Shown: one piece after another, positions 8,617-54,958 of the stretch | Layout of the letters: every line of letters starts with the position of its first letter | How positions within the stretch are numbered: position 1 is the stretch's first letter | Assembly (NCBI GenBank): GCA_016906335.1 | Contig: JADEYG010000002.1 | Coordinates: 1,178,001 to 1,242,000 of the forward strand | DNA: 64,000 nt | Origin: Novakomyces olei | Lineage: Eukaryota | Reading direction: 5' to 3' | Position numbers and translations under genes: made by a program | Notes under the pieces: generated by a model | The model's database searches: none | What the model saw: the letters and a program-made list of their open reading frames with translations, nothing else | What the model was told of the DNA's origin: nothing

Positions 8617-11600
8617 ATGGCGCAGCAAGTCGCGCGACGTCGAATCGCGTCTCGGCGCAGGTCGTCTTTACAAAATGACTCGAAATCTGATCGTGCGCGG
8701 CGCGTGACAAGGCGACACAGTTCAACCGCCCAAGATACTTTTCAACGAGAAAGCAGCCGACTGCCACGGGCTCGGCGACAGCGATTGTCGGTCGATGTTT
8801 CTGGACTGCGTGGATCAGTTGACAAGGCGGATGAATTATCACAGAGGTCTGAGGAATCGCCGACTAAACGTGTAAAGCTGGGGACGCGATCGGCATCGAG
8901 CGATGATACGTATACTGATACAATTGAGGCTCAAGAAAAGACGCCTCCTGACTCTGACGATTCAGGTTTTACTAGAGTGAAAATTGCTCACAATGTTCAA
9001 GTCGTGATTGACGCGGACGATGTGGAAAACGCAAAGTCTTTTATCAACCATGAGCCTAGTGAGTATGACGGTGATAGCTCTTCCCTTGACTACAGGACTG
9101 CGAGTGAAGCAAGTTCGGGCGATGCGGCTGAGAGATCCGAGGAAAATGCTGATTTAGACGACAGCAACGTTCCTGTTCATATTGAGCAGATTGAGGTTGA
9201 TATCGACAATGACGAAGCAGATGCAGATGCAGATGCACAAGATAAAAGCAGTACGAGCTCTGCGAGTGCTCAGACATTTGAGAGCCGCAGTAATTTAGAC
9301 GAGTCTGAGAAAGATGAAGAATCGTCTTCTTTGGCAGACGAACCCCATCGTGCGCAAACTGTGAAGCCGGCAAGTAAGAAAGCAGCTTCGTTTGAGATCC
9401 AATTGCTCCGCCAAAAGGAAATGCCCCTTATTGAACCTGCGCTAGGGCAGCCCTTTTGTCCACGAGCAGAATATTTTTCCGAGGACATTGGCGATGAGGG
9501 AGACCCTGGTCTGGTAATAGCATTAAAGCCAGAGCAGGTCATTCCAGTACGGGGTCTTTGTGAGATCCAAGTGCTCCGTGGCAAATTGGCGGTTGCAGGC
9601 CGTGTCCTTACTGCTCCATCCCCCTCTTTTCCCATTTTCGCCCCCGAGTGCAGAGCTCATCCAGTCCTCGTAGCCTTACCGTCAAGTGCAGAACAGGAGC
9701 TGGAGTCCAGTATTAAACTAGCAGTATCAGCAAAACTTGAGGCAGTGTTACAAAGACCTGCACTGGCGGACAAAATAGTGTTTACAGTGCGTAATTACAA
9801 CACATCTCTTTTGCAAATGGCAAACATTGCTCCTAAAGCTGGATCGCTTTGGAAGTACTACAGTCCTACACTAACATTTGCCATTGAGCCTGCTGCCAGC
9901 ACACAGGCACCGCCTTCGTCCTGGTCGAGCGTTGCCATCACTATTGCTCAACAGGCAGTGCTGCCTCAACATACAGGGCAAAGGCTAGTTGTTGCAGGGG
10001 CCAAACATACGGGCAAATCAACATTTTGCCGGTTCCTGGCCAACAGTCTGATTACACAAGGCATTACTCCTTACTTTTTGGATATAGATCCAGGCCAGCC
10101 TGTATTTGCTCCGCCAGGAAGACTGGCCTTGAACCGTTTGTCCCCTGAGCAAATATACGTTTCACCTTTCCAGGCTCCGGAGCAGGAGATTGCAGCCTTT
10201 TACTTTGGCGAGGTAACTCCGGCTGTAAACATGTCGCTGTACAAGCAATACGTTTGCGCCCTGTACGCAGCTTACGAAGTATCGTGCAAGGACGAGTTCG
10301 GTAGCCATGTGCTGATTGTCAATGGCACCGGGTGGATCAAAGGCTTTGGCAGGGAGTTGTTACTTGAAATGCTTGATTATGGGCATACAGACACCCTACT
10401 CTATGTGGGGGCCCGGGATCATGACCACAGCGGACTGCTTCAGCTGCCTGCGGCAATAAACGCCGAGTACTTTGACGGTCTCTTGCCGCTGGATACGAGT
10501 GTGAATGCCGCACAGTACCGTGAACTCGTTCTCAGCTTTTATCTTCACTCAAATGCAGAGCAGTGGGATGCTCGTCCTTTATCGCAGCACAATGTTCTCG
10601 TCGCAAGTTATGGAGAGAGAAGAGTTGATAAACAAATTGCCCAAGGCATGAAAAACATTGATGAAGAAAAGTCCGGGACACAAGAAATGGTACAGGAAAA
10701 GGCACAGGAAAGTGTTCAGGAAAATGTCCAGGAAAATGTGCAGGAAAATGTGCAGGAAAATGTGCAGGAAAATGTCCAGGAAAATGTCCAGGAAAATGTC
10801 CAGGAAAAGGCTCAGAAAAATGTTCAGGAAAAGGACGCCATTGAGGAGAATGATGCGAAAAAGAATGAGCACTCTGATGATACTGAACACATTAATGAAA
10901 ACAATAGTATCGAGAACAAAGATAATGTCGGTATTGCTGAGGCGGAAAATGAACCCGAAGATGGGACCAAACCTGTTGCAGGCAGTAATACTGGCAAAGC
11001 AAACGATAATCTTCACGATCGTGAGGATATCGAAAATGGCAATTCTGGTGACGATGAAAAAGAGACTGAACCGAGCAGTGAGAACATGGAAACAGTCGAA
11101 AACGGAAAAGACAGCAATATCCAAATTGACGTAAATAAAAACGGCGACATTGACAATATTGACGATAAAGTTTTTGACAATGAGAATAAAAATGAAAGTA
11201 ATAAGGACAATATAACTGTGACTAGAGACATTGATGCTGTCATCCTTCCACGCTCAGACATGCTAATTGATGACGCCATAAAGGCTCTGCCTGGTACAGT
11301 GGTAGGAGTGGTAACTTGTGACGCAGCCCACGCACAAAAAATACAGGATCAAATTGAGCACACACCGGAATTGCTGCCGATTATCACAATGAGCAGGCCT
11401 CAACTGCTTCCAAATTGGCTGACTGGGACACGGTGCTTGGGCCTTGCAGTGGTTCGGAACATTGATACTTCTTCTCAACGAATACTGCTTACTGGGCCAA
11501 TTGCACAGAAACAATTGCTGGATGCAAAATCAAGTGGCCAAAGGGTGTTTCTTATTCGTGGAAGCGGTTTGAATTTGCCGGCGTGGGAATTACATTGCAG

Positions 11601-15492: not shown

Positions 15493-18400
15493 ATGCAGGC
15501 TACGAACAACAGCTCTAGTCGGCCGAGTCGCCGTAGCGCACCAATCGAAGGCTTTAAGCCCGCCTTTCTTGATTTGGCCTCGCGCCCTCGCTTTGACCAT
15601 TCGCCTTTACCTTCAAGCGCTTTGCCCTCTACCAACTATACTTCGCTGCCTGCTGGATATGGCGTCACAACTGCTATTAGCAAACCTCATTTTTTCAGCA
15701 AAGACGATGCTCTTGGCTCGGTCACAGGGGTATCATTCATTATTTTTGATCAAATTTTAAGCTTATTTTTTTTTTTTTTTTTTCACTTTGACCTTTTCAT
15801 ACTAGGGACAATACTTACCCTTGAAGATGCCTAGCGAATACTATACGCAGCCTGCTCCTACGAGAAAATCCGAGGATTGGTTTGGCGATTTCAACTAGCC
15901 TGCCAATGTCCCAGAGACAATGCATCTTCCCGTCAGCTCAATCGATAAAGACAAGCCTTATTTTCAAAAGCACGTGACACAGCCAAAGAGTGGTCATAAA
16001 CGCCGAGCTCTCTCCTTCGAGTCGCGTGCTATGCGTCACCCGTCTCGGCAAAGTTCGTCATCAAAACGAAGTGCAGAGCCAAACGATGGACCAGTTGCTT
16101 TGGCGAGTAGTTCCGTTGCGGGTACGGCTTATAATGGATCAGAGCCAAGAGGCCGAGTACGGCGGAGAAGTGAGGAGGAAGAAGATGTTTACCGCAGTGT
16201 TATCGATGACTTGACTGTGAAAATCCAGCACATGCGTCGCAAAATCCGTAAACTGGAAAGCCGTGAGGCTCGACGGCTCAAACAGGATACACTGTTTGAA
16301 GTCCGTTTCCACCGTCTCGATAGTGAAAGTCGGGAAAGATTGGAGGAACTACTGCGCAATTTCACAGTCTCACTGCCCTCCAGTGCCGACATGAGTTTCA
16401 ATTCGAGTACGGCTAGGTCTGAAGATAGTGTACAGGCATCAAATTCTGGATCTTCAGCTATGATTACGCCATCTTCAGCACAACTTGGCAGACTTGTGGA
16501 AAGTAAACCGCAAACTGCTCCGGAATCGGCTGCTAGTGGATCACAATTCGATTCAGGGTTTTCGTCCATGTCTTCTGGCATGGAGGGGTATGGTGGCCGG
16601 GAAAGTACGCATTGTAATTTAGCGTCACAGATGGTGGATGATGCAGACCATAACTCTGACGTCAAAAAAGCGTATAAAATTATGTTGATGATCGAGATTG
16701 TCCTTTCCGAAGTAGCTACCGGCACCGACAGGGCGGTCGAGAGAGAAGTGCAAAAGAAGCCACACAGACAATTTAACCAGGAGGGCACGGAAAAGTCGTT
16801 TGGCGAAGCTTTACCATCCCCAAAGCCCGGCTTTCCACCCTTAAAAGTTCGGCTGAGCCTGGAGAAGCAAGAGAGTTTGAAGAAAATTGGCCTGCTCATC
16901 CCCTCGTTGCTGAACGGGGTGTACGAACGTTCCCTATCACCTTCTGGCCCGAGCTGGCTCGATCTCGCTTCAGTATGTGCAATTGCAAAGTCTTGCAATA
17001 TCAGCCTTTGCGAGTCGGATTTGCGTAACGCAATCTTGCGGTTTAGCAGGTCTCTCATCCTGAGTGCCGACAATAAGAGCGTGCGGTACGCAGGAACGCC
17101 CTTTGAGACAACCGGGTCAGCGGCCACTGACTCGAGAGGGTCAATGAGCACATACACTGGCGGCAGCAGCAGCAGCGGCGGCTTTTCCGATACGCAAAGG
17201 GCAAGAAGCCGTGTGCAACAACAGCCAAATGAACAAAAACCCCAGCCTGGAAATAAAAAAGACAGTACTCCCTTTGCCGTTAACGAAGCCGGCAGCCATG
17301 GAAGAGCCTCTCCACGATCAGCCTTGTCCGGAGCCGATGGAGGCAATCCCGTCATATACACTCCAGTACTGGCAAAATCTCAGCGGTCAGCTTCAACGCT
17401 GTCCGACACCGATTCTGGTTTCTCTGACAACGATGAAGAGGGTGCAGCGGCAGCGGCTACAGACACACACAGATCGTCGATAGACGCTCGTGTTTCAAAT
17501 GGCGGTGGCCCAGTAGTGTTTTTCAACTGCGGCCAGTTTTGTATAGACTTGTCGAGGCAGCCGGTCTCGCCACACGCACGGAGGTACTCGCCCGAGTATG
17601 AGCGGGTCTTTGTTGAAGAGCCATTAGGCTCTACAACACAGTCTCCTTTGCATTTAGCAGCTACCAGCGAGAAGGCAGGTGCCTTTCCCTTGCCCTTGCC
17701 CTCTACTTTTCCCTTTCTACCACTGACGCAGTCCGGTGTGGACGAGAGCCAGTTTGTACTTGTACCCGAGGCAGACGAGAAGCTGTGTGAAGTGAGGAAG
17801 CGAGCCTCCTTGGAGAGCAATTTCAAAGAGCCCAAAGAGCCCTACGCTCTTGCCGGCTTCAGTTTTCCTCCGCTCGAGTCTGGAGCCGTGGACACTCGCT
17901 ACATGCAGTCACTGCCGATGCAGGCTTACGGGACCTGTCTCCTCGTTGACCATCTCCAGTTCCATGTCGTTGACGAGTACTGCAAGATCCCAGTGGAGAC
18001 ATCTAGTGCTCATGTAATGGACAACCGAGTGCACAACGAGTTTCTTGCTGACAAGGGTATAAGGCATATGGTTTACGAGTACAGACTGGCGAATGCCTCG
18101 AGGCACAGGTTCGTTTTCCGTCAGCTGTTCAGTCTGCTGTTTCTGCTCCCGTCCTCTACGGGAGCAGCACTTGCCTCTGCAGCAAAGCGGCCCGTCTCCC
18201 TGGCCGAGCTGAGACAGGACTCGGACGGATCGCTGAGCGATGGGTTTGACTCGTTTGGATCCAGTGCTGCTTTAGAGGCAAAGCCGGACAGCAGCATCGA
18301 CTGTGATGCTCACAGTACACTGCCTGCAGGTCCTTTGGCTCCTATAGTGCCTTTGGCTCCTATAGTGCCTTTGGCTCCTATGGCTCCTATGGCTCCTATG

Positions 18401-19084
18401 GCTCCTATAGCCAATCGTGTAGGAAGCACGTCCAGTCGCAACGAGTATATCGACTCGAGCAAGCGGGACAGCGGGTCAATGACAGACATGGAAGTAGAGT
18501 CCTGCTCCTCTTCTTCTCAGCAGTCACTGTCCCTTCAGCCAAAGGCCGCTGATCGAGCAGTGCCAGTGGACAGGACAGCCACGACACAGAGCTCGCTTTC
18601 GTCTTCAAGGCAAAGCCGCAATATCCACGAGACACTGCTGGGCAAACTGGCACGTGAAAACAGCAAAAGGCAACAGCCGACTAGTCAGACTCTTGTTACA
18701 CACGAGAGCCTTGAACGGACGCCGACAGAGTCCTTTGGTGAAGGCGGTAGTGACCACTCCTCGGATTATTACGTGTCGGGCGCTCTGGCGGACAGGGTTT
18801 GTCCTCCAGACGCGAGTCTAATGCCCTCGAGTGCTGTTGAGAGCGGCCGAGATGGAGATAGTGCGGGAGAGCCTCCGAGTCTGCTCTCCAACATTGACGC
18901 AATGCGCCAGTTTAGGGATATAATGGGCCAGAGAGTCGTGCAAGCATCTCTGCAGTTTTCTCAGCAATGGACAGAGTCTCTGCATTTGCGGCCGACGCCA
19001 ACTGCCGCTCAACAAGGGCCGAACGAGACGGACGCAAGCATTGATGATGGATTTGACAGTAATGCCAGCGAGCGGTCTGCTTAG
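15493..19084 (+). CDS. frq: FREQUENCY circadian clock protein homolog. Uninterrupted ORF 15920-19084; upstream exon 15493-15729 and intron 15730-15805 are in frame but separated by TAG at 15896-15898
   Basis: FRQ motifs: PYFQK, YRSVIDDLTV coiled coil, LFEVRFHRL...LEELLRNF, LSADNKSVRY, GPVVFFNCGQFCIDLS, DHLQFHV. Ser-rich and largely disordered. Confidence 0.88.
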
Positions 19085-19267: not shown

Positions 19268-19786
19268 AGGGCGGTCTAGTAGATTAAGTTGGCTGACAAG
19301 GCAATTATTTGACAGTTATTTAGATTGGCCAGTAGATTCAAGTTGGCTAACAAGGCAGTTAATTTGACAGTTGTTTAGATTGGCCAGTAGATTCAAGTTG
19401 GCTAACAAGGCAGTTAATTTGACAGTTGTTTAGATTGGCTACTTTTAGATTGGCCAGTAGATTCAAGTTGGCTAACAAGGCAGTTAATTTGACAGTTGTT
19501 TAGATTGGCTACTTTTAGATTGGCCAGTAGATTCAAGTTGGCTAACAAGGCAATTAATTTGACAGTTGTTTAGAGTGGCTACTTTTAGATTGTCTACTTT
19601 TAGATTGGCCAGTAGATTCAAGTTGGCTAACAAGGCAATTAATTTGACAGTTGTTTAGAGTGGCTACTTTTAGATTGTCTACTTTTAGATTGGCCAGTAG
19701 ATTCAAGTTGGCTAACAAAGCAGTTAATTTGACAGCTGTTTAGATTGGCTACTTTTAGAGTGGCTAGTTTAGATTGGCTAGGGTTA
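19268..19786. repeat. Composite minisatellite: 55-nt unit x~7 interleaved with 15-nt TAGATTGGCTACTTT subunits, between convergent frq and aconitase 3' ends
   Basis: Units start at ~19268 (degenerate), 19321, 19376, 19446, 19516, 19601 and 19686. Confidence 0.95.
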
Positions 19787-19890: not shown

Positions 19891-22869
19891 TTAAGCCAAT
19901 ATTTCAAGCTCGCTGATGCGCAGGACAGTGTACGGCTGTTTCTGTGGCACTGTGCGAATGTGCCGCCGCCTCTTTCGGTGGTTAATTTTTAGAATAAACT
20001 TTGACTTTGTCTGCTCAATCACAGTAGCAGTACAGCGGTACAAGCTCTCGCTGATAAAAGGCTTTCCGTGCAGCGTAAAGTCGCGCGTACCCAGCCGCGT
20101 TGCCTGTGTGAATCTGATACGCTGTCCCACACGGACTCTGCCACGTAAACGTACCGGCAGCGTTACTTGGTCGCCCCGGGTCACCATATACTTTTGCGAG
20201 TGCAGTTTTACCACAATGTACGGCTGCGGCTGTGCACGCATCCGCTCCAAGGCGCGCCTCAACGCCTCCTGAGCACCCGTGTCTCTTTCAGTACCCGTGT
20301 CTCTTTCAGTACCCGTGTCTCTTTCAGTACCCGTGTGCCTTTCAGTACCCGTGTGCCTTTCAGTACCCGTGTCTCTTTCAGTACCCGTGTCTCTTTCAGT
20401 ACCCGTGTCTCTTTCAGCTCTGGCGGCAGTGTGCATCTGCCTTTTGGCCAAATTGGCTGCTTGTGGAGCACTACCGACTCGCTGCGTTTGGGCACGGTTA
20501 CGGATACTATTCAGCGCGGAACCGGCGCGGAAAAACTCGAGCTGATCGGGCGACATTGTATGCTGTACCGGGATGGTAAACTCCACCTTATTTCCGTCAC
20601 GTTCACCTTCCACACATAAGGACACGGGCCCCGTGCCCTTATTGACAAGGCTAACGAGCCCGAGTGTACGCACCCGGTCTCCGGCACGGAGCACATCAAA
20701 GTCCGCCTCGTTGGCAAACGTGAGAGGCAGCATTCCCTGCTTTTTCAGGTTTGTTTCATGGATACGGGCAAAAGATTTTGCCAAAACTGCTTTGCCATTC
20801 ATAGCCCTGGGCTGTAAGGCAGCATGCTCTCTCGCACTGCCTTCGCCATAGTTGTGCTCTGCCACAACCAGCCAGGGCTGGCCACGGTCTTTTAACCGCC
20901 ACAGCCAGTCTGGAATCGAGAGCTTTTCTCTTGTGTTTGCCTCCGAATCATAGGCAGTATTAACCTCTCCCGTCTCTGCGTTTACGGCACCGATAAGCGT
21001 ATTGTTGCAAATATTGCTCAAATGGCCCTTGTACTTGAGCCATTTTCCGGCTGCTGAAATATGGTCAGTCGTGCACTTGCCTTTTACCCTCAGTGCCACT
21101 ACCAGATCCAGCTCTGCACCCGTCCAGGCGGGGAAAGGCTGCAGCAACTCGAGCCGGTCGCTGGCCGGATCCACCGCCACAATGACACTCGCGTCCCCTG
21201 ACGCAGGCGCAGCAGCCGGCAGGTAAGCAATATTGCCAGCATCAAACCCGGCACTCGGCAGTTGCGTGCCCCGCGGTGGGCGGAAGCGGAACTCGCTGCC
21301 GTCCGGAGCCACAAGGGAATCATTCACCGGATCAAAGCCCAAATCAGAGGCAAATATCTTGGCCGCCACTATCTCGGGACTGGCTAAAAAATTCATTGTC
21401 TTGGCATTGCCGTCGTTACGGGCCCGGAAATTACGGTTGAAGGAGGTCAGGATAGCATTGGTTCCTTGCTCGCTCTCGTCGGGTTTTCCGTCGGGTTTTC
21501 CATCGGGTTTTCCGTCGGGTTTTCCGTCGATTTTTCTGTCCCACATGCCGATACAGGGCCCACAAGCGTTGGCCAGCACGGTTGCGCCTGCCTCACGGAG
21601 CTGTGCGGTTAGGCCGTCGCGTTCAATAGTAGACCGGATCTGTTCCGATCCGGGCGTAACCAAGAACGGCGTCTTTGCCTTTAGGCCGGCAGCGGTTGCC
21701 TGGGCAACCACGTCAGCCACACGAGTCATATCTTCATAGGAGGAATTGGTACAGGACCCAATCAGCCCGGCGCTGAGCTGCTGAGGCCACTTGTTGGCCT
21801 CAATCGCTTTGCGAAAGCCGCTGAGAGGCGTTGTCAAGTCAGGCGTAAAGGGCCCATTCACGTGCGGCTCTAACCGGCTCAAATCTACATGGATGACATC
21901 ATCGTACTCGGCTCCCTCGTCGGCAGTGAGGTAGTTGTGGTCCGTGTGAGCTTTACGTGCCGCCTCTGCCACTGGCGCTCGTCCCGTAGAGTGCAAGTAA
22001 GCTTCCATGCTGCCGGTAAAGGGAAACACGGAGGTGGTAGCGCCAACTTCTGCACCCATATTGCACACTGTCGCCATCCCCGTGGCACTCAGCGTCTCCA
22101 CTCCAGGGCCACAGTACTCGAGGATTCGGCCAGTGCCGCCACGGACGCTTAGCCGGCCGGCGAGAGTGAGAATGAGATCCTTGGGCGCTGCCCAGCCGGA
22201 CAGCTGCCCCGTCAAATGCACTCCAACGACTTTAGGGCATTTAAGCTCCCACGGGGTCGCTGTCATTGCGTCAACGGCATCGGCTCCTCCGACGCCGATG
22301 GCAATCATGCCCAGTCCACCGGCATTGGGAGTGTGAGAATCCGTGCCCAGCATCAAGCCGCCAGGCGCAGCATAGTTCTCAAGCACAATCTGGTGGATAA
22401 TACCCGAGCCAGGGCCCCAAAACTGTATACCGTAGCGGCGAGCACAGGACTGTAGGAAATCAAAGATCTCCTGATTGCTGGCAATCGCGTCCCGCAAATC
22501 TTGAGCGCCTCCTTCCCGTCCAACGATAAGGTGGTCGCAGTGGATTGAGGCATCCACGAGCGTCCGATCGAGACCACAGGTCATAAATTGTAAGAGTGCC
22601 ATCTGTGCAGACGCGTCCTGCATTGCCACTCGATCAGGGCGCAGTTTCAAGTAAGACTCGCCACGCGGAGCGGCAGCTGCTTCGGACGAGTCCCACAGGT
22701 GGGCAAACAGGATTTTTTCCGCCAGCGTCAGCCGCCGCGGGCCAAGTACTCGGCGAACTTGAGCCAATTTGGCTCCCAGCCGTTTGTAGGGAGGCGTAAT
22801 GCGCCCATAGTCTGGCGCCGGCGCCAGCTGCGCCATTGAGCGGGCACCGCTGCGTGAAAGAGCCTGCAT
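19891..22869 (-). CDS. ACO2: Mitochondrial aconitase-family protein (Aco2/homocitrate dehydratase type) fused in frame to C-terminal mitoribosomal protein bL21m
   Basis: DRVAMQDASAQMA, HCDHLI, GTDSHTPNAGG, GSCTNSSYED, ACGPCIG, WLKYKGHL (Aco2-type K). The last ~115 aa (YIVVKLHSQKYMVTRGD...GTRDFTLHGKPFI...YTVLRISEL) match the bL21/Mrpl49 pattern. Confidence 0.93.
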   Translation of the reverse strand: MQALSRSGARSMAQLAPAPDYGRITPPYKRLGAKLAQVRRVLGPRRLTLAEKILFAHLWDSSEAAAAPRGESYLKLRPDRVAMQDASAQMALLQFMTCGLDRTLVDASIHCDHLIVGREGGAQDLRDAIASNQEIFDFLQSCARRYGIQFWGPGSGIIHQIVLENYAAPGGLMLGTDSHTPNAGGLGMIAIGVGGADAVDAMTATPWELKCPKVVGVHLTGQLSGWAAPKDLILTLAGRLSVRGGTGRILEYCGPGVETLSATGMATVCNMGAEVGATTSVFPFTGSMEAYLHSTGRAPVAEAARKAHTDHNYLTADEGAEYDDVIHVDLSRLEPHVNGPFTPDLTTPLSGFRKAIEANKWPQQLSAGLIGSCTNSSYEDMTRVADVVAQATAAGLKAKTPFLVTPGSEQIRSTIERDGLTAQLREAGATVLANACGPCIGMWDRKIDGKPDGKPDGKPDGKPDESEQGTNAILTSFNRNFRARNDGNAKTMNFLASPEIVAAKIFASDLGFDPVNDSLVAPDGSEFRFRPPRGTQLPSAGFDAGNIAYLPAAAPASGDASVIVAVDPASDRLELLQPFPAWTGAELDLVVALRVKGKCTTDHISAAGKWLKYKGHLSNICNNTLIGAVNAETGEVNTAYDSEANTREKLSIPDWLWRLKDRGQPWLVVAEHNYGEGSAREHAALQPRAMNGKAVLAKSFARIHETNLKKQGMLPLTFANEADFDVLRAGDRVRTLGLVSLVNKGTGPVSLCVEGERDGNKVEFTIPVQHTMSPDQLEFFRAGSALNSIRNRAQTQRVGSAPQAANLAKRQMHTAARAERDTGTERDTGTERDTGTERHTGTERHTGTERDTGTERDTGTERDTGAQEALRRALERMRAQPQPYIVVKLHSQKYMVTRGDQVTLPVRLRGRVRVGQRIRFTQATRLGTRDFTLHGKPFISESLYRCTATVIEQTKSKFILKINHRKRRRHIRTVPQKQPYTVLRISELEILA
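20273..20417 (-). repeat. Coding 18-nt repeat x8 (ERDTGT/ERHTGT) in the aconitase-bL21 linker
   Basis: Visible array TTTCAGTACCCGTGTSYC on the + strand. Confidence 0.95.
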
Positions 22870-23500
22870 TATAGCGTTAGTTGTTGGAGCTGTAGCTCTG
22901 CTGCCTTACCGCTCTGCCACGCAGTGCCGACATTGCGTTGTGTCTGGCAATGGTTTATTTGAAAAATTGTTTTTTTATTGTTTATTATTCTTGTTTGTCT
23001 AATATTCTTTTTATTATTACTGTTTTATATTACTATTTTTTATTGCTATATTTTATTACTATGTTTTATTACTATCTCTTATTTAATTAAACCTTGGGAT
23101 TACCACCAATTGTGTCATATAATATACAAAATAATCATAGATTTAAAAGAAATTGCTGCATAAATAATTCTACGACATTTATTGCCTTTTTTTTTTCTGC
23201 CAAAGTTGCACTTGAAATTGTACCGTCGGCAGCTTTTATACGTAGTTTTAAAGGATTAGTACTCGTGTGTATGGTGGAAATAAATCTGTCTGACTGAAAC
23301 AGCGAACCACATTGAGCCTAACAATAGACAGTGAATAGACAATGAGAATAGTAGCAAAGCACAGTAAACCAGTTGACAGCTGCTGGCATTGCTGGCAAGA
23401 ATAAGGAAGGGCGCCTTGTCTAGAAGGAAAATTATCGATGTTAGGCTACAAGGGAAACAACGATAATGGAATATTGACGTTATTACTGTGCAGTTGGCAG

Positions 23501-25069: not shown

Positions 25070-26722
25070 TCACCGACCTTGAACCCGGCGCACCTTTTTC
25101 CACCAATCAGGCTCAAAATTCTCGCCGTAGTTGATCCAGTCGGGTAAGAACCGGTGCACGCTGCGTTTGAACGCCCACGTTTCTGGTCTGCCATCCCACG
25201 CCCAAAACTGGTGGTTAGAATTAATCTTGATATAGAGATGGAAAGTGAGACGCGTAGCCCAATCTTGAAGGCTTGTTGCCGCGCATTGAACAATGTAACA
25301 GGGTAAAAAGAGCAGAACAAAATGAGGAGCGAATAAAATTAAGGAGCGAACAAAATAAAGAGCAAACAAAAACAAAGAGCAAACAAAAACAAAGAGCAAA
25401 CAAAAACAAAGAGCAAACAAAAACAAAGAGCAAACAAAAACAAAGAGCAAACAAAAACAAAGAGCAAACAAAAACAAAGAGCAAACAAAAACAAAGAGCA
25501 AACAAAAACAAAGAGCAAACAAAAACAAAGAGCAAACAAAAACAAACACATATACGTGACTTACGAGAGGGGGAATAATTGTAAAAGACTTCAACTTTCC
25601 AGCAGTAATATGCTGCAAAATGCTAATATCCAATTTGAAAGGAAGCCATTCATTCAGTTCAATGAGCATACTGCGAGCTGCGCTCTGAGTAAACACGTAG
25701 GCGGTAGCGCACAGCGGGTTGCGCGACCGGACAATAAGCCGGCGAGGGGTTCGATCGTGAAAGTACTTCTCCAGAATCTCGTACACCCAGTCGACCGAGA
25801 AAGGCTGAACGTTTTCCCGGTCAGCGGGCACTTCCTGGTACACTTCCGACATGGGCAGCCCACGGACACGCTGTTCGCCGTGCTCAAAAGGCTGTTCATA
25901 GCAAGCGCCCAAGTGCAGCATGTCCCACAGAGGATAGGTAAACGCAGAGTCAATGTCGCCACTGACACGGCGGAGAACAGGGCGCAGCTGAGTAACGATA
26001 CGGCGTATATTCAAGTCAAAATCCACATCGCCTTCCAGGACAAGAGCATTGGGCAAATTTAGCTGCACCATTGTACGCCAGACAGCAGCATGACTTAGGA
26101 ACTGGGCATAGTCAGATCCCTGCATGCCCATTGCTGCCGTATCAACTGCGTCAGGAAGGGCATTCGTGTCTGAAGCTGCTGCCGCCGGTGGCACTGCTGG
26201 CACTAGCGTCACATTGAGCCCAGCAGCAGACGCAGACAGCACCATATCGTCCACCAGATCCGGCCGCAGAGTATCGTATATTACGTATATCGCAGAAAAC
26301 CCTAAGGTTGAGTTCGACAGGGGAAGAATGGACATATAGTCGGCCTGCTCGCTCGAAACTGCCTCGGGCTTGACGAACCGAACTTTTGGTTTTCTCGGGC
26401 CGACGACGTGCACGTCGTCGTCGGCGTCGTCAGCGTCGTACCGACGGCGAAGCCGACTGTGCACTGTGCCATTGTGGCCGAGCTCAAACATATAGAGCAG
26501 CATGCAGACTGTGACTACCACTGCCGCCAGGGAAAACGCTAGCCGCCGCTGATTACGGGCTCTCTGGAGCCACAGGGTGAAGCCTCGCCATTGCGACCGT
26601 AGCCTGTGACCTGAAGCCAGTTTTTTAGAGCTTTTGCTTTCAGAGCTGTACGGGTCCGCTCCGGGGCTGTGTACGCTCCGGCTCGAACTCTCGCCGCCAC
26701 CAAACTGCGGCCTCACGCTCAT
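25070..26722 (-). CDS. Type II membrane glycosyltransferase, GT25-like; intron 25208-25564
   Basis: N-terminal TM anchor; SNSTLGFSAIYVI, SHAAVWRTMV, ALVLEGDVDFD, WDMLHLGAC, PLCATAYVFT, IIPPL|FWAW. Confidence 0.8.
   Translation of the reverse strand: MSVRPQFGGGESSSRSVHSPGADPYSSESKSSKKLASGHRLRSQWRGFTLWLQRARNQRRLAFSLAAVVVTVCMLLYMFELGHNGTVHSRLRRRYDADDADDDVHVVGPRKPKVRFVKPEAVSSEQADYMSILPLSNSTLGFSAIYVIYDTLRPDLVDDMVLSASAAGLNVTLVPAVPPAAAASDTNALPDAVDTAAMGMQGSDYAQFLSHAAVWRTMVQLNLPNALVLEGDVDFDLNIRRIVTQLRPVLRRVSGDIDSAFTYPLWDMLHLGACYEQPFEHGEQRVRGLPMSEVYQEVPADRENVQPFSVDWVYEILEKYFHDRTPRRLIVRSRNPLCATAYVFTQSAARSMLIELNEWLPFKLDISILQHITAGKLKSFTIIPPLVSHVYVFVFVCSLFLFALCFCLLFVFVCSLFLFALCFCLLFVFVCSLFLFALCFCLLFVFVCSLFLFALYFVRSLILFAPHFVLLFLPCYIVQCAATSLQDWATRLTFHLYIKINSNHQFWAWDGRPETWAFKRSVHRFLPDWINYGENFEPDWWKKVRRVQGR
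25349..25547. repeat. 17-nt tandem repeat (AAACAAAAACAAAGAGC) x~11 inside the GT25 intron
   Basis: Directly visible array. Confidence 0.95.
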
Positions 26723-29318: not shown

Positions 29319-29998
29319 ATGTCGTGCATCTTTTGCCGCATTATCAAAGGTATATTGGCTCCTTGCGGTCGTGCATTTGCTGATCCGTGTGCTTTTGCCG
29401 GTCGCTTTGCCCAATGAGAGGAGGGCAGAGTACCGGACTGGAGCATTTACAAATAGGTGAAATTCCCTCGTACAAATTGCTCGAGACGGACAAGACGTAA
29501 GCTCGGGAACGAAGACGGAAATATAATGCGATCAGCGCTAATGTCGCCAGCTACTCTTTCCTCGACATTGGTCCTCTGAGTGAGGGTCATTCTGTAGGAT
29601 ATAATGCTGACTCGCTTTGCTGATTGCCAGCTGGTTATCCCGAAAGAACACGCGCAATTCTTGCATGACCTTTCAGACGAATCACTAAAGGATATTCTGC
29701 CAGTTGCGAAGCGTCTGGCGACCGCTATTGGTGCGGAAAACTACAACATTCTCCAGGTAGGCATTGATTGGCATTACGACGCTAAAGCTAATTTCTAGAG
29801 TATGTGTGGCCCACACCGGTTTGACCATCTAACACTATAGACAATGGCCGCTTGGCACATCAGGTTGTCGACCATGTGCACTTCCATATCATTCCGAAAC
29901 CTGACCAGGCTCAGGGACTCGGGATCGGGTGGCCTACTAAGCCTGCCGACCAGACACAGCTCAAGGAGCTCGCTGAAAGGCTGAAAGAAAAACTGTAG
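29319..29998 (+). CDS. HNT1: HIT-family adenosine monophosphoramidase Hnt1; five introns including a 1-nt exon at 29799
   Basis: Spliced MSCIFCRIIKGEIPSYKL...FLDIGPLSEGHSLVIPKEH...YNILQNNGRLAHQVVDHVHFHIIPK, with the HxHxH triad. Confidence 0.93.
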
Positions 29999-33569: not shown

Positions 33570-36394
33570 CTAATTCTTTGAGGAAGTATTCACCCAGTAC
33601 TCGGCGTCCCCCGGGCTATCAGACCCCCGTAGCCTCGAGTCGTCTGTCGTGGCCAGAGGCGAAGCCGTTGAGGCCAGACTGCTTGTAGCAGTACCACTAG
33701 CGGCACTAGCGCTAGCGGCACCACCCCGCCGAGCATTATTACCAGCCCCGGCTGTTTCAGTATCAGGACTGGCACTGCTATTCCTGCTAGAACCGTTGCC
33801 CTTACTTCCTCGGCGCTGGAGCACCATCAGCTTAGCCAAACGCAGTCCGCAGCTGTTGCACAAGGAATGCTTTCCGTCCGGATCGCGTCGCCACTCGGGC
33901 GTCTCACTGCGCCCACAGTTTGCACAAACACGATTAGACTGCCTTTGGTGCCGTACCTGCTGGTGACGGATATTGTTGGAGGTAATTCCATCAATTTCCT
34001 GCTGTAATCGCCGATTGGCCAGCCGCAGATGCTGAATCTCATACTGCCAGCTGGTGGACCGTGTGGCTTCCAGCTCCATGTATATACTCTCATCAAGACT
34101 ATGCTCCTCAACGCTCATTGACCGCAGCTGCGGCCTGACAAAGGCAACATGCTTCGACATTCCGGCTGCTGAAGCCGAGTCCATCAGGCTCTTGGGCAGT
34201 TGGCTCACTGGCGAAGCTTTGGATCGTGAGTCAGGGAGTGCCGCAGTACTATCCGCATTTGCCTCACTCAGCTTTCTTCCTGGTTCCCCATTGGCCGCCA
34301 GTTCTTGTTCAACGGAAGGGTTCATTTCTCTACAGCGCATTATTATCGTACGCACACTACTGCTCAATGGCTTGTCAGAGTCAGGGTAAAGGGTTGTCAG
34401 TACTTCAACGCTCTTGCCACTTTTACAGTTCAGCAGGTGCCGGACGTTTACTATCTTGCCCCGCCGAGCTCGTCGGAGAGCCTTGTCAATTCTTTCTTCG
34501 CCCTCTCCACGTGAAACTTCTTTTACATTGAGACCGTACAAGTCTCGACTCTCAAAGTCAATGAAGCGACTGCACGTAGACGCAACAAAGAGCATTATTC
34601 CATCCGCTGAAATCTTGGCCCAAAACTCATTCTCCTGTATCTGCGATTTTTGCAAGACATCACGCCATGTGAGCGAGACAAGAGGCCGCTGCCTGCCAGC
34701 AAGAACTATACATTTACGGCCTCGTCCAGGCTCAATATTGAGCCGCCCTACGCTCTCGAGCCACATGTAGCTCGAATTCTTGCGATGGACACGAAACAGA
34801 AAGCTTACCGCGTCACTGCTCGAAGACGCGTCCCTTAGAATTCGCATTACAGAGACAATATCGCTCGGGTGGCAGATGGAGGATAAGCCCAGGCCAGTTA
34901 TTTCGTCCGACTCGTACTCCAGGATATTGCGACAGGAGGGAGAGGCGTACAGGATAACGCCTTTCAGAGAGAGAATATAAATAAAATCATCCGCCTGCTG
35001 TAAGACTGCCTCGTACTCTTTGCCTCCAGACATGGATACGTTCATCGGCGATTTGCCGTCTGTCCGTGCATCGCGCCGTTTCCGTTTCGTTTGGAATTGG
35101 GGCAGCGGCTCCAGTTCTTTGGGGAACGACGTCATTTGGTAGTTGACGGCGTACGTGCCATCTAATCGTTAGCCGTGGGAAAAGTAGGGAAACAGAAATA
35201 GAATAAATTAACGAGAAAGAATCAAGATAAAAGCTATCAACGAAGATTCGATGGACAACAAGACAGACAGGCAATGCACAAATCGAATTCCAGATATAAT
35301 AAACAAAAACAATGATACACGCAATACGTACCCTTCATACGGTTCATAATAGACTCTGGCTGCTCGACTAAATCAACCTGAAACCCCACGAAAAACGAAA
35401 CCTCTCCGTCAATATGGGTGCTGACGGGGATAATAGTGAGCAAATTTATAAAAGGCTGTCCAGATTTGCGATAGTTTATAAGCGACACTTGAGCCTCATC
35501 ACCAACATTTTGCTGATGTTTGAGAAAGGATACGGCACTTTCGTCGGTGTATATCCGTTTTGAGCCCTTTGTGACATTACCATCTGGTGCTTGCAGAAAT
35601 CGGCAATTCTTCCCCACAATCTCATCCATAGTGTAGCCCGTTAGCTTTTCAAAGTTAGGGCTAGCATAAACAATTGGAAAATCGGGTTCCCGGGCGGAAG
35701 AAACAACAAACGAACAAGACATGTCGACCGGACCAATATTGATTTTCGGGTCCCGACGCATTGCTACTCGCATCTAAAAATTAGTACTATAAAACCGTCC
35801 GCCAAAACTTACGAGAATGCCCAACAGATCAAACCCGGTAGAGGAGTACATGCCTGCAAACCCTGGCCGATCAAGACCCAATGGCTGAGCGACATTCTGA
35901 GCCCCGTCAATATGTAAATTCTGCTTTTTTTGCTGCTGCTGCTGCTGCTGCTGTTGTTGCGTATGCAAATCAACACCTTCAGTAAAAGGCGAGTCCGGGT
36001 AAGAGCTTTGCCGGCTCAATAGAGCGTCTGAAGTAGCAACGCTCGACTCCTCGTCCTGCACGCCTGCACGAACAGCAGACGCGATGGGCCGCCTGTACTG
36101 CATTTTTAAAGGATCACGGTCAGCTGAGTGCGTCGCGGGCAGAGTATGATCGTCGTGGGCGGAAAGGCTGTCACGCTGATTGTTGGTAAAGAACGGATTA
36201 GCACTCGGCCCATCGTCTTCAAAATTCTCAACAAACAACGAAAAGTCTTCATCCTCGGCACTGCCGTCGCCCACAGTCGGATCGGGAGCAGCGGCAATGC
36301 CGAAGCCGTCTCGGAGACTCCGATCGGGTTCCTCTCCGTCGCTGCCGCTGTTGGCAGCGACAGAGAAAATCTCGTCGGCTGATAAATTCAGCAT
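33570..36394 (-). CDS. wc-1: White Collar-1 blue-light photoreceptor/transcription factor (LOV, PAS-B, PAS-C, GATA zinc finger); introns 35774-35812 and 35162-35331
   Basis: YSSTGFDLLGIL|MRVAMRRDPKINIGPVDMSCSF, GKNCRFLQ photo-cysteine motif, INYRKSGQPFINLLTIIP, CHPSDIVSVMR, TSWQYEI, CANCGRSETPEWRR...LCNSCGLR, poly-Q. Confidence 0.96.
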
Positions 36395-37020
36395 TAAAGC
36401 TGCCGCTGTTCAGAGCCCGTTAAATGCGCAGATCAAGGGAGGAGCCTTACCTGAGCCGGCAGCGGGCAAAGCGAAACCTGGGACTGTCGCTCTCTCGACT
36501 CCCAACCCGCTCTGTCGGGCAAAGATGGGGCAAGTTTTGTGCAGAGAGAGCGACGACCAATTAACTATACACAGCAGCTGTATGACTATGAAAAGCCGCT
36601 GCCAGTTTCGCTGCCACGTTAGACTGACGACCCAGAAACTCGCGGTCTCCAAAGGTGCCGCTCCCGCCAGAGGGAAAATGTGGCACTAACTTTTGGCACT
36701 CGAGCGGCAAGCTCTTTGCACAGCGAACAGGGGCAAATCAATATGTGTCCGTATTCGTGTGCCTATGCATTGTGTATACCGGCTCGCAGACTGGTACTGT
36801 TCCTGACCAAGTAATGGTAGACGTATCGCGTCGGCTAGTTGTATCTGGCGTGCTGGCAGAGTCGTCCACAAGTCATACTATGGACAGCTAGTCACAGTTA
36901 AATGACTAGTTAGCTGCCCACCTATTGCGTCGTATTATAGCGAACGAGTTTACGTAGAGCCAACAGATTTATTTATATACATAAAAATATATAATTAAAA
37001 TATATAATTAAAATAGAAAT

Positions 37021-46905: not shown

Positions 46906-48281
46906 ATGATCCGTGCACGGGTGGCAAGGCTTACATCTGTCGCCCGACACTGTAGACTTGTTACGGCTGGCCAGTCTGTACGAAGCTTTTCACGCACGCA
47001 CTCGCCTGCTCGACGAGGGCGGGTGGCGTGGTCTCTGGCGATTGCAGCGCTCAGCGTCTCTGGAGCCCTCTATGCCAGCAGTGTACTAGCCCTGTTTTGT
47101 TTTTAATTAATTAGTTATTTATTTATTTATTTCGTTTATTAATTAATTAATTAATTTAATTTGTATATTTTTTAATTGCTCTTGCTAACGGAAAGGCGGG
47201 CACAGCGGTACAGTGCGACTCGAGACTAGAGGATGAGCAACAGGTACACACTTCTTGGGAAAGCTTACTTGCTAAAGTAAAAGACGGCAGTTGTTGCGGA
47301 AAAGCCGCTGATGCGTCAGCGTATGGAACAGTTTGTCAAGGATAAACAAAAGGAAATCGTAGAAGCGATCGAGCAGGTGGATGGCGGCAAGTTTCGTGTC
47401 GACACATGGAGGAGAAACGAGGGCGGTGAAGGCGTAAGCTGTGTATTGCAGGACTCAAACGTCTTTGAAAAAGCCGGTGTCAATGTCAGCGTTGTGCATG
47501 GCCAACTTGGTCCTCAAGCAATTGAAAAAATGAGAGCTGACCACCGCAGTTTGCACGTCGAGGCAGGAAAGACCCTACCTTTCTTTGTTGCTGGTATCAG
47601 TCTCGTTATGCATCCACGTAACCCAAATGCGCCAACAGTGCATTTAAATTATCGATACTTTGAAGTGGAAAACGAGGACGGGTCCCCGCGCGCTTGGTGG
47701 TTTGGCGGCGGGTCTGATTTGACACCGAGCTATTTGTATGACGAAGATGCTATTCTGTTCCATCGCCTACTTAAAGAAGCGTGTGACCGCCATGACAAAG
47801 CTTATTACCCGCGATTCAAGGCCTGGTGTGATAAGTATTTTTGGATTAAACATCGCGATGAGGCTCGCGGTATTGGTGGTATTTTCTTTGACGACTTGGA
47901 CGACAAGGATCCAGAACAATTATTTTCTTTTGTACAGGATTGTGCAAACGCATTCCTGCCTGCATACGTGCCTTTAATGAACAAGCGAAAGGTACGTGTA
48001 TTAATCATACACATTCGTACGTACTAAATGCTAATTACTAGGACATGCCTTTTGGACCAGAGGATAAAAAATTCCAGCAAATTCGTAGAGGTCGGTACGT
48101 TGAGTTCAACCTGGTACATGATCGAGGAACTGCTTTTGGATTGCATACGCCTGGAGCAAGAATCGAAAGTATTCTCATGTCCCTGCCCCTCACGGCTGCC
48201 TGGTATTATGAACATGTACCATCAACCCTCCAAGAGCAGCGGCTCATGAGCGTCTTGCGGCAGCCCAAGGAATGGGTGTAA
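46906..48281 (+). CDS. HEM13: Oxygen-dependent coproporphyrinogen III oxidase with N-terminal targeting peptide and TM segment; three introns
   Basis: [64 protein letters not shown]. Confidence 0.96.
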
Positions 48282-54211: not shown

Positions 54212-54958
54212 CTACATCAGCAAACCGAGATACTCGGTACGAGGGTATCGGCGATGCAGTTCTGGCCATTGCACGATCATACGGTCTGCTACGCGTAGCA
54301 TCAACACCAATTTTCCAGTAAGAGAGAGTTTGCTTACGCGCGCAAAAGATTCAACGTAAATAATAGAGACACGTTTGCCCAAAGCATACTGTGCGGGTTA
54401 GCATTAAAATCACAATTAGCTTTAATTACCTGTACAAGACGGGCGGCAAGGCACAGCATGAGACAGCTTCCTGGACCGTTACACAAAATTAGATCAGGAG
54501 CGCCAAACCTGTTTTGGCATAAAGGGCCAAAGCAGGCAAATAGTGACACTAGAGTAGTAAAAGGTGTAGTGGTCCATGGCTGTAGCACTCTGCGAGCTCT
54601 TGGGATAGTGATAACCTGGAACGCATGCTCCTGAACATTGGGCTGCTTCTTCTCGAACTGCTCAACTTTTGTGCGGCTCAGCTGATCACCTGATGACAGC
54701 ACATATGAACGTGGATAAAACTCACATCCACTTTGCTGCTTGTCACCATGCAAATAGCTTAAAAGTGTCAGCATTTCCGTTGTATGTCCGCCTAAATTGT
54801 TGGTAAAGTTCAACGGTACATTTAACCTTACCCGACCCGATGAAAATGGCGGTATGGATATATTGGCTCCGCACCTGCTTGCGCCTAATTTGTGTCGCGG
54901 AGAGCCACACTGCGGTTCCCACGAGGGCCACAATTAGGAGCACAAAAGCCTTCAGCAT
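54212..54958 (-). CDS. ALG14: UDP-GlcNAc transferase subunit Alg14; two introns
   Basis: N-terminal TM, GSGGHTTEM, IPRARRVLQP, PDLILCNGPG, IYVESFARV, LSLTGK, VQWPEL. Confidence 0.93.

Follow-up and report, generated by a model that had tools for sequence, protein, structure and literature searches.

A likely one-nucleotide exon between two short introns of a fungal HNT1 gene

We found that the HNT1 gene in a 64,000-nucleotide stretch of fungal DNA (the window) is best read as having six exons, one of which would be a single nucleotide. The gene lies at 29319-29998 on the forward strand and encodes a protein of the HIT family. Its proposed fifth exon is the A at position 29799, which would supply the first base of the codon AAC for Asn81. 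This codon sits within the conserved sequence LQNNG, and it is probably interrupted by two introns. Judging from the reading frame and the splice signals, we consider it quite likely that A29799 is a real spliceosomal exon. The coordinates of the gene, and of some other features of the window, are given in Table 1.

When A29799 is included, the joined exons of HNT1 form a coding sequence of 399 nt (132 amino acids). We compared the two large exons with the Pfam profile for the HIT domain (PF01230, 98 positions). Exon 4 exceeded the cut-off, matching profile positions 30-71 with E = 4e-5; the last exon matched profile positions 77-95 with E = 4e-4 (on its own, the last-exon fragment scores 21.4 bits, and the cut-off is 21.5). 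Membership in the HIT family requires both the domain and the triad HxHxHxx, and the last exon contains the triad as HVHFHIIP. The best 120 of the longer homologues are fungal Hnt1 or adenosine 5'-monophosphoramidase proteins, with 61-75% identity across the last exon. We also aligned the 132-residue model with the 87 full-length homologues (those of 125-140 amino acids among the best 120). The alignment is gap-free at all five junctions, and the best identity is 70%. Compared to the Hnt1/HINT branch of PF01230, the protein is ordinary: its length is typical, both large exons match HIT, and the HVHFH triad is present. Only the structure of the gene is unusual. The locus is best explained as a working gene that would encode a Hint-type histidine-triad enzyme.

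Table 1. Coordinates of the HNT1 gene model and of selected other features in the window
Feature	Positions	Strand	Description
HNT1 exon 1	29319..29349	+	ATG at 29319; MSCIFCRIIK plus the first base of G11; matches the N-termini of homologues in the alignment
HNT1 intron 1	29350..29456	+	107 nt, phase 1, GTATAT...AAATAG; junction gap-free relative to homologues
HNT1 exon 2	29457..29496	+	40 nt; alignment with homologues
HNT1 intron 2	29497..29550	+	54 nt, phase 2, GTAAGC...CTAATGTCGCCAG; alignment with homologues
HNT1 exon 3	29551..29593	+	43 nt; alignment with homologues
HNT1 intron 3	29594..29630	+	37 nt, phase 0, GTAGGA...CTGATTGCCAG; junction GHS/LVIPK gap-free
HNT1 exon 4	29631..29756	+	126 nt; LVIPKEH...AENYNILQ; Pfam HIT match
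HNT1 intron 4	29757..29798	+	42 nt, phase 0, GTAGGC...GCTAATTTCTAG; CTAAT at 29788-29792; acceptor TTTCTAG
Proposed one-nucleotide HNT1 exon	29799..29799	+	A, the first base of AAC, Asn81 of LQNNG; basis is the sequence
HNT1 intron 5	29800..29840	+	41 nt, phase 1, GTATGT...TCTAACACTATAG; CTAAC at 29829-29833; acceptor ACTATAG
HNT1 last exon	29841..29998	+	Starts ACAATGGCCGC; AC plus NGRLAHQVVDHVHFHIIPK...KEKL plus TAG at 29996-29998; HIT triad HVHFH
PAS_9 (LOV-type) domain	35240-35773	-	White-collar-1-like gene
PAS and GATA zinc finger	within 33570-35168	-	White-collar-1-like gene
Candidate 39-nt intron	35774-35812		White-collar-1-like gene; ORF bridging

The need for A29799 comes from the reading frame. 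Exon 4 ends with ...AAC ATT CTC CAG, in which CAG encodes Gln80, and the last exon starts with AC AAT GGC. The last exon is in frame +2, and from 29843 it reads NGRLAHQVVDHVHFHIIPK...KEKL followed by a stop codon. If position 29756 is joined straight to 29841, then the translation continues as TMAAWHIRL... for 47 residues, until a TGA at 29982-29984, and it lacks the HIT triad. If the A is retained, then CTCCAG + A + ACAATGG gives CAG AAC AAT GGC, which is translated as LQNNG. This sequence is found in 119 of the 120 best homologues, and the one exception (P0106) is missing an entire segment at this point. Similarly, L[QE]NN occurs in 38 of the 40 short fragments that we examined. The initial annotation of this region had claimed that including the A rebuilds the conserved Hnt1 sequence and that skipping it shifts the frame ahead of the HIT triad. 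We agree on both points, and every coordinate and motif that it gave is present in the sequence.

We then asked which other junctions might do the same. We listed the single introns that start at 29740-29774, end at 29820-29855, and restore the frame of the HIT domain, and none of the 388 introns in this list has GT-AG ends. We also listed every pair of GT-AG or GC-AG introns within 29740-29856. There were seven two-intron solutions, and LQNNG arises only from the one with the one-nucleotide exon, as the other six add 1-5 wrong residues. Introns with AT...AC ends were rejected because conserved residues would be removed or replaced; such ends also bear little resemblance to U12-type sites. Across this full listing of junctions, the predicted one-nucleotide exon is the sole canonical splicing solution that would rebuild the conserved protein.

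The sequence between Gln80 and Asn81 also has the signals that two introns would need. The initial annotation stated that both introns have their own donor, branch point, and acceptor, and the complete sets can indeed be read in the sequence: each has a GT donor, a CTAAY branch motif, and a YAG acceptor. In intron 4 (CTAAT-TTCTAG), the predicted branch A is at 29791, 7 nt before the end of the intron, and in intron 5 (CTAAC-ACTATAG), it is at 29832, 8 nt before the end. The intron 4 donor, GTAGGC, is no strong match to the donor consensus. The single base is flanked directly by AG and GT, with a putative branch site and a workable intron length on both sides.

How often would such an arrangement arise by chance? 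We searched both strands of the window (128 kb in total) for the composite signal CTAAY-N3-5-YAG-N-GTRNGY and found just one match, which is the HNT1 site. In 100 shuffled sequences, the mean number of matches was 0.06, and six of the shuffles had at least one match. By rough arithmetic from the shuffle mean, the composite signal is expected at about 5e-7 per position. A usable composite site within a given 84-nt intron would then have a chance of around 1e-5, or around 3e-6 if the base must be A; this is our own rough estimate from the shuffles, and it assumes about 25 positions that leave each half with at least 30 nt. The branch-acceptor motif alone had 32 matches in the window, as compared to 21.3 expected, and the acceptors of confirmed introns are among these matches. 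The window gave no hint of additional microexons: when the spacing between acceptor and donor in the composite signal was widened to 0-15 nt, there were two matches, as compared to 1.01 expected.

Intron length, by contrast with these signals, does not help to decide. The initial annotation described 41-42 nt as the typical intron size, but these lengths are at the short end of the local range, which is 37-146 nt. The other introns of HNT1 are 107, 54, and 37 nt. Elsewhere in the window, the continuity of Pfam domains identifies a 41-nt intron at 54389-54429 on the reverse strand, which joins positions 8-115 and 121-171 of the Alg14 profile, and a 50-nt intron at 47992-48041 on the forward strand, which joins positions 1-217 and 218-295 of the coproporphyrinogen oxidase profile exactly. 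In the latter intron, the branch A is 7 nt from the intron end, the same as in HNT1 intron 4. Further candidate introns that bridge ORFs in the window are 39-146 nt; this catalogue is heuristic and noisy, so we relied only on the two introns that were confirmed by Pfam and on those of HNT1 itself. Introns of 41-42 nt are thus plausible in the window, judging from these sequences. However, a single intron of 84 nt would also have an ordinary length here, so length gives no weight to two introns. We prefer the one-nucleotide exon because the internal signals and the reading frame decide the matter.

Could an ordinary 84-nt intron be removed instead? The assembly might have lost one base at an exon edge (CAGA/GT... 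or ...AG/AACAAT), in which case the intron at 29757-29840 would suffice. Such an intron would be within the local length range, and none of the relatives that we examined has an intron at Gln80/Asn81. But this explanation needs an indel confined to one or two particular sites outside homopolymer runs, and the assembly does not appear to be riddled with indels: 14 stop-free frames of at least 300 amino acids cover 25,152 nt of the window (although at least one of these frames is probably antisense noise). It also needs the internal series of branch site, acceptor, single base, and donor to have arisen by chance (roughly 1e-5) and the base to happen to be the A that Asn requires. We consider an assembly error to be very unlikely. 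The same intron could be removed if the frameshift is genuine and the locus is a recent pseudogene or a null allele. The product would be the first 80 amino acids of Hnt1 followed by 47 unrelated residues; the direct join does leave an open shifted frame, which ends at the TGA at 29982-29984. HNT1 is not known to be essential in yeast, which would make its loss easier to accept. Yet the rest of the gene is intact, from the ATG and the other four junctions, which are exact, to the HIT triad and the stop codon, and the protein aligns to its homologues without gaps and with up to 70% identity. Here too, chance would have to account for the internal splice signals. A recent loss of function strikes us as highly improbable.

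The remaining alternative is a different junction that preserves the frame. In the full listing, the single introns that come closest are a GC-AG intron at 29761-29840 (donor GCATTG), which gives LQVDNG, and a non-canonical shift of the donor or acceptor by one base, which gives LQDNG. Both would alter or lengthen LQNNG, which nearly all of the best homologues retain, and GCATTG is a poor donor, while the options with a one-base shift lack GT-AG ends. This is the least probable of the explanations that we considered for the junction. We also rejected two possible sources of the intron pair itself: introns 4 and 5 are unlike each other (global alignment score of -3), and neither one is repeated elsewhere in the window, which speaks against both a tandem duplication and an introner-like element.

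If A29799 is an exon, then how might its flanking introns be removed? Short fungal introns are recognized across the intron itself (intron definition), and introns 4 and 5 would each be recognized in this way. The acceptor AG of intron 4 (29797-29798) would lie within the stretch of the intron 5 donor that pairs with U1 (from -3 to +6), and the putative branch A of intron 4 would be only 9 nt before the intron 5 donor. Because of the shared bases and this close spacing, two spliceosomes could hardly assemble at once, so removal of the two introns probably proceeds in sequence, in either order. Removing intron 4 first would give the intermediate ...CUCCAG-A/GUAUGU, and removing intron 5 first would give ...UUUCUAG/A-ACAAUGG; both would keep a canonical site. 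Catalysis should be unproblematic because each spliceosome would see the unspliced neighbor as an "exon." The final mRNA would read CUCCAG-A-ACAAUGG, and the process would resemble recursive splicing with one base retained. As for the RNA itself, we found no special fold at 29745-29855 (z = -0.17 relative to shuffles), and there were no matches to Rfam families and no tRNAs in the window.

A broader proposal is that the 84-nt unit is the most compact among the cases that we compared, that it has an obligatory splicing order and shares bases between an acceptor and a U1-pairing stretch, that it may be a natural minimal substrate, and that a measurable share of the mRNA may be skipped and inactive and may tune the level of Hnt1. 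We view this proposal as tentative, with a probability somewhat short of even. If it is true, then the 84-nt unit could be used to test the minimal spacing of two spliceosome assembly sites under intron definition.

The initial annotation went further and suggested that skipping would be a simple on/off switch, which amounts to regulating Hnt1 by whether the A is included. Skipping would pair the canonical donor at 29757 with the canonical acceptor at 29840 and would destroy the active site, and there is a precedent in plants, as VPS55 has isoforms with and without a one-nucleotide exon (PMC8831610). On the other hand, the predicted fold around the site is unremarkable and the window has no Rfam match, as noted above, and the skipped form might be mere splicing noise. 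Also, the stop codon reached in the shifted frame is only 14 nt short of the normal one and is within the last exon, which means that no exon junction would follow it in the skipped mRNA. Junction-dependent nonsense-mediated decay (NMD) would therefore probably not remove this mRNA, and quantifying the skipped form in an NMD mutant, as the initial annotation had proposed, would be a weak test. Overall, regulated switching seems unlikely.

Comparisons to relatives provide little help with intron 4 and intron 5. No close relative was found among the public proteins: matches to the last exon have at most 73% identity in the class of 28-90 amino acids, and 75% for a partial match in the class of 91-2000 amino acids. 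Nor did the protein matches in these two size classes include a public gene model for the HNT1 of the window. We also scanned metagenome contigs and obtained 80 loci, with a best identity of 67%. Most of these loci are intronless, and when they were compared with the model by tblastn, none of the 80 had a break at residues 80/81. (The alignment for one locus, L018, begins at residue 80, but this is the edge of the contig and is uninformative about an intron.) LQNNG is also contiguous in the short genomic fragments that we examined. In contrast to this junction, six eukaryotic metagenome loci (L020-L022, L025, L029, and L034) have a break near residue 11, which is the position of intron 1, and four of them (L020-L022 and L034) also have a break near residues 24-28, which is the position of intron 2. 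These two intron positions may therefore be old, as far as the alignments indicate. Because the relatives that we examined are distant and have no intron at Gln80/Asn81, the arrangement there is without comparative support, and within the sampled relatives the intron pair appears to be lineage-specific. It may have originated by the gain of a second intron one base away from an older one. Alternatively, cryptic sites within an older intron may have rescued the loss of one base, which has been proposed for Fusarium (PMC12940212).

Separately, the homologue that lacks LQNNG, which is the public Hnt1 model from Kickxella alabastrina (P0106), jumps from ...KKIA to NNGRL. This suggests that it is a mis-spliced gene model, with its error in this part of the protein.

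Other genes in the window give an indication of the host. A frame of 1004 amino acids at 19891-22905 on the reverse strand encodes aconitase fused to a ribosomal L21 domain. The same fusion is found in Schizosaccharomyces, where it is annotated as "aconitate hydratase/ribosomal protein subunit L49," and the twelve best-scoring matches of the window's aconitase, among them proteins from Schizosaccharomyces, Taphrina, Savitreella, and Saitoella, are 67-70% identical to it. Given these identities and the shared fusion, the host looks like an ascomycete near Taphrinomycotina. We also noticed a 1061-amino-acid open frame at 15899-19084 on the forward strand whose N-terminal part matches the Pfam family FRQ (frequency clock protein) with E = 1.6e-20; FRQ is known mostly from Pezizomycotina. 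About 15 kb from this frame, at 33570-36409 on the reverse strand, is what looks like a White-collar-1-like gene (Table 1).

The window has unusually many tandem arrays with short units (34 rows in the TRF output, whose periods range from 4 to 155 nt). One of these, with 7.9 copies of an 18-nt unit (20275-20417), is in the linker between the aconitase and L21 domains. Between the FRQ-like frame and the aconitase gene, a complex array at 19278-19778 has unit lengths of 55, 70, and 85 nt and TRF scores that reach 499, and it supplies four of the matches to the branch-acceptor motif (as CTAAC...CAG). Some arrays are within long open frames, such as 11.7 copies of a 12-nt unit at 10693-10832, in a CLP1-like frame, and 14.2 copies of a 17-nt unit at 25307-25546.

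Exons of one nucleotide have already been documented in plants and in fungi, so HNT1 is not the first case, and it implies no new mechanism: such exons are proven in plants and are supported by reads in fungi. The statement in the initial annotation that they are extremely rare and are overlooked by gene predictors agrees with four reports (PMC12940212, PMC12230235, PMC4674806, and PMC8831610). Among the papers listed by our literature search, none paired HNT1 or "histidine triad" with a microexon; the supplements of PMC12230235 and PMC12940212 may contain more genes with one-nucleotide exons. If the HNT1 exon is confirmed, then nuclear one-nucleotide exons would be known from one more gene family, the third, and from a Taphrinomycotina-like lineage of ascomycetes that diverged early, and it would follow that these exons can sit between two introns of near-minimal size. 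In practical terms, a gene predictor would be expected to return a truncated or frameshifted model of this HNT1. Similar cases might be sought with a simple rule: exon edges that are out of phase around a conserved motif, with an internal AG-N-GT.

Some related systems involve the same juxtaposition of splice sites. In a stwintron, the donor, branch site, or acceptor of the external intron is split by an internal intron (described in Lipomyces; PMC7138796), and at a recursive splice site, the acceptor abuts the donor, so that there is a 0-nt exon and nothing is kept in the mRNA (PMC13149111). Both resemble the predicted HNT1 arrangement: an acceptor stands immediately beside a donor, and two splicing reactions in succession remove the interval. 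We rejected the idea that the HNT1 introns form a stwintron because their donors, branch motifs, and acceptors are uninterrupted and one base is retained. Likewise, the site is not a 0-nt recursive site, because the base that the frame requires lies between the AG at 29797-29798 and the GT at 29800-29801.

The closest precedents are one-nucleotide exons in plants and in other fungi. In Arabidopsis, the one-nucleotide exon of APC11 was demonstrated with cDNA and with mutated minigenes (Guo & Liu 2015, PMC4674806), and the one-nucleotide exons of APC11 and VPS55 are conserved across land plants and were confirmed by RT-PCR (Yu et al. 2022, PMC8831610). As proposed for HNT1, the exon of APC11 is a single A between AG and GT; the reading frame depends on it, and annotation had overlooked it. 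However, the plant exons are flanked by long introns (333 nt upstream in APC11), whereas in HNT1 there would be about 41 nt on both sides, as read from the sequence. In Coprinopsis cinerea, an annotation based on long reads includes 13 one-nucleotide exons in 13 genes (PMC12230235). This annotation shows that one-nucleotide exons are a recurring feature of intron-rich fungi whose introns are short, and that gene models break if such exons are left out; C. cinerea is a basidiomycete, while the host of HNT1 looks like an ascomycete. A similar case is CYP621A of Fusarium, in which the exon is shared by 20-24 orthologues and supported by 18 SRA reads (Nelson & Syed 2026, PMC12940212). It too is a nuclear gene of a fungus, its one-nucleotide exon lies within a conserved motif, and the exon was deduced from exon boundaries that are out of phase and from an AG-N-GT inside the apparent intron. 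CYP621A retains a G (AGGGT) in an interval of 139 nt, whereas HNT1 would retain an A in an interval of 84 nt, and the two genes belong to different families and lineages. The argument for HNT1 is of the same kind as the one for CYP621A before transcript data were added to it.
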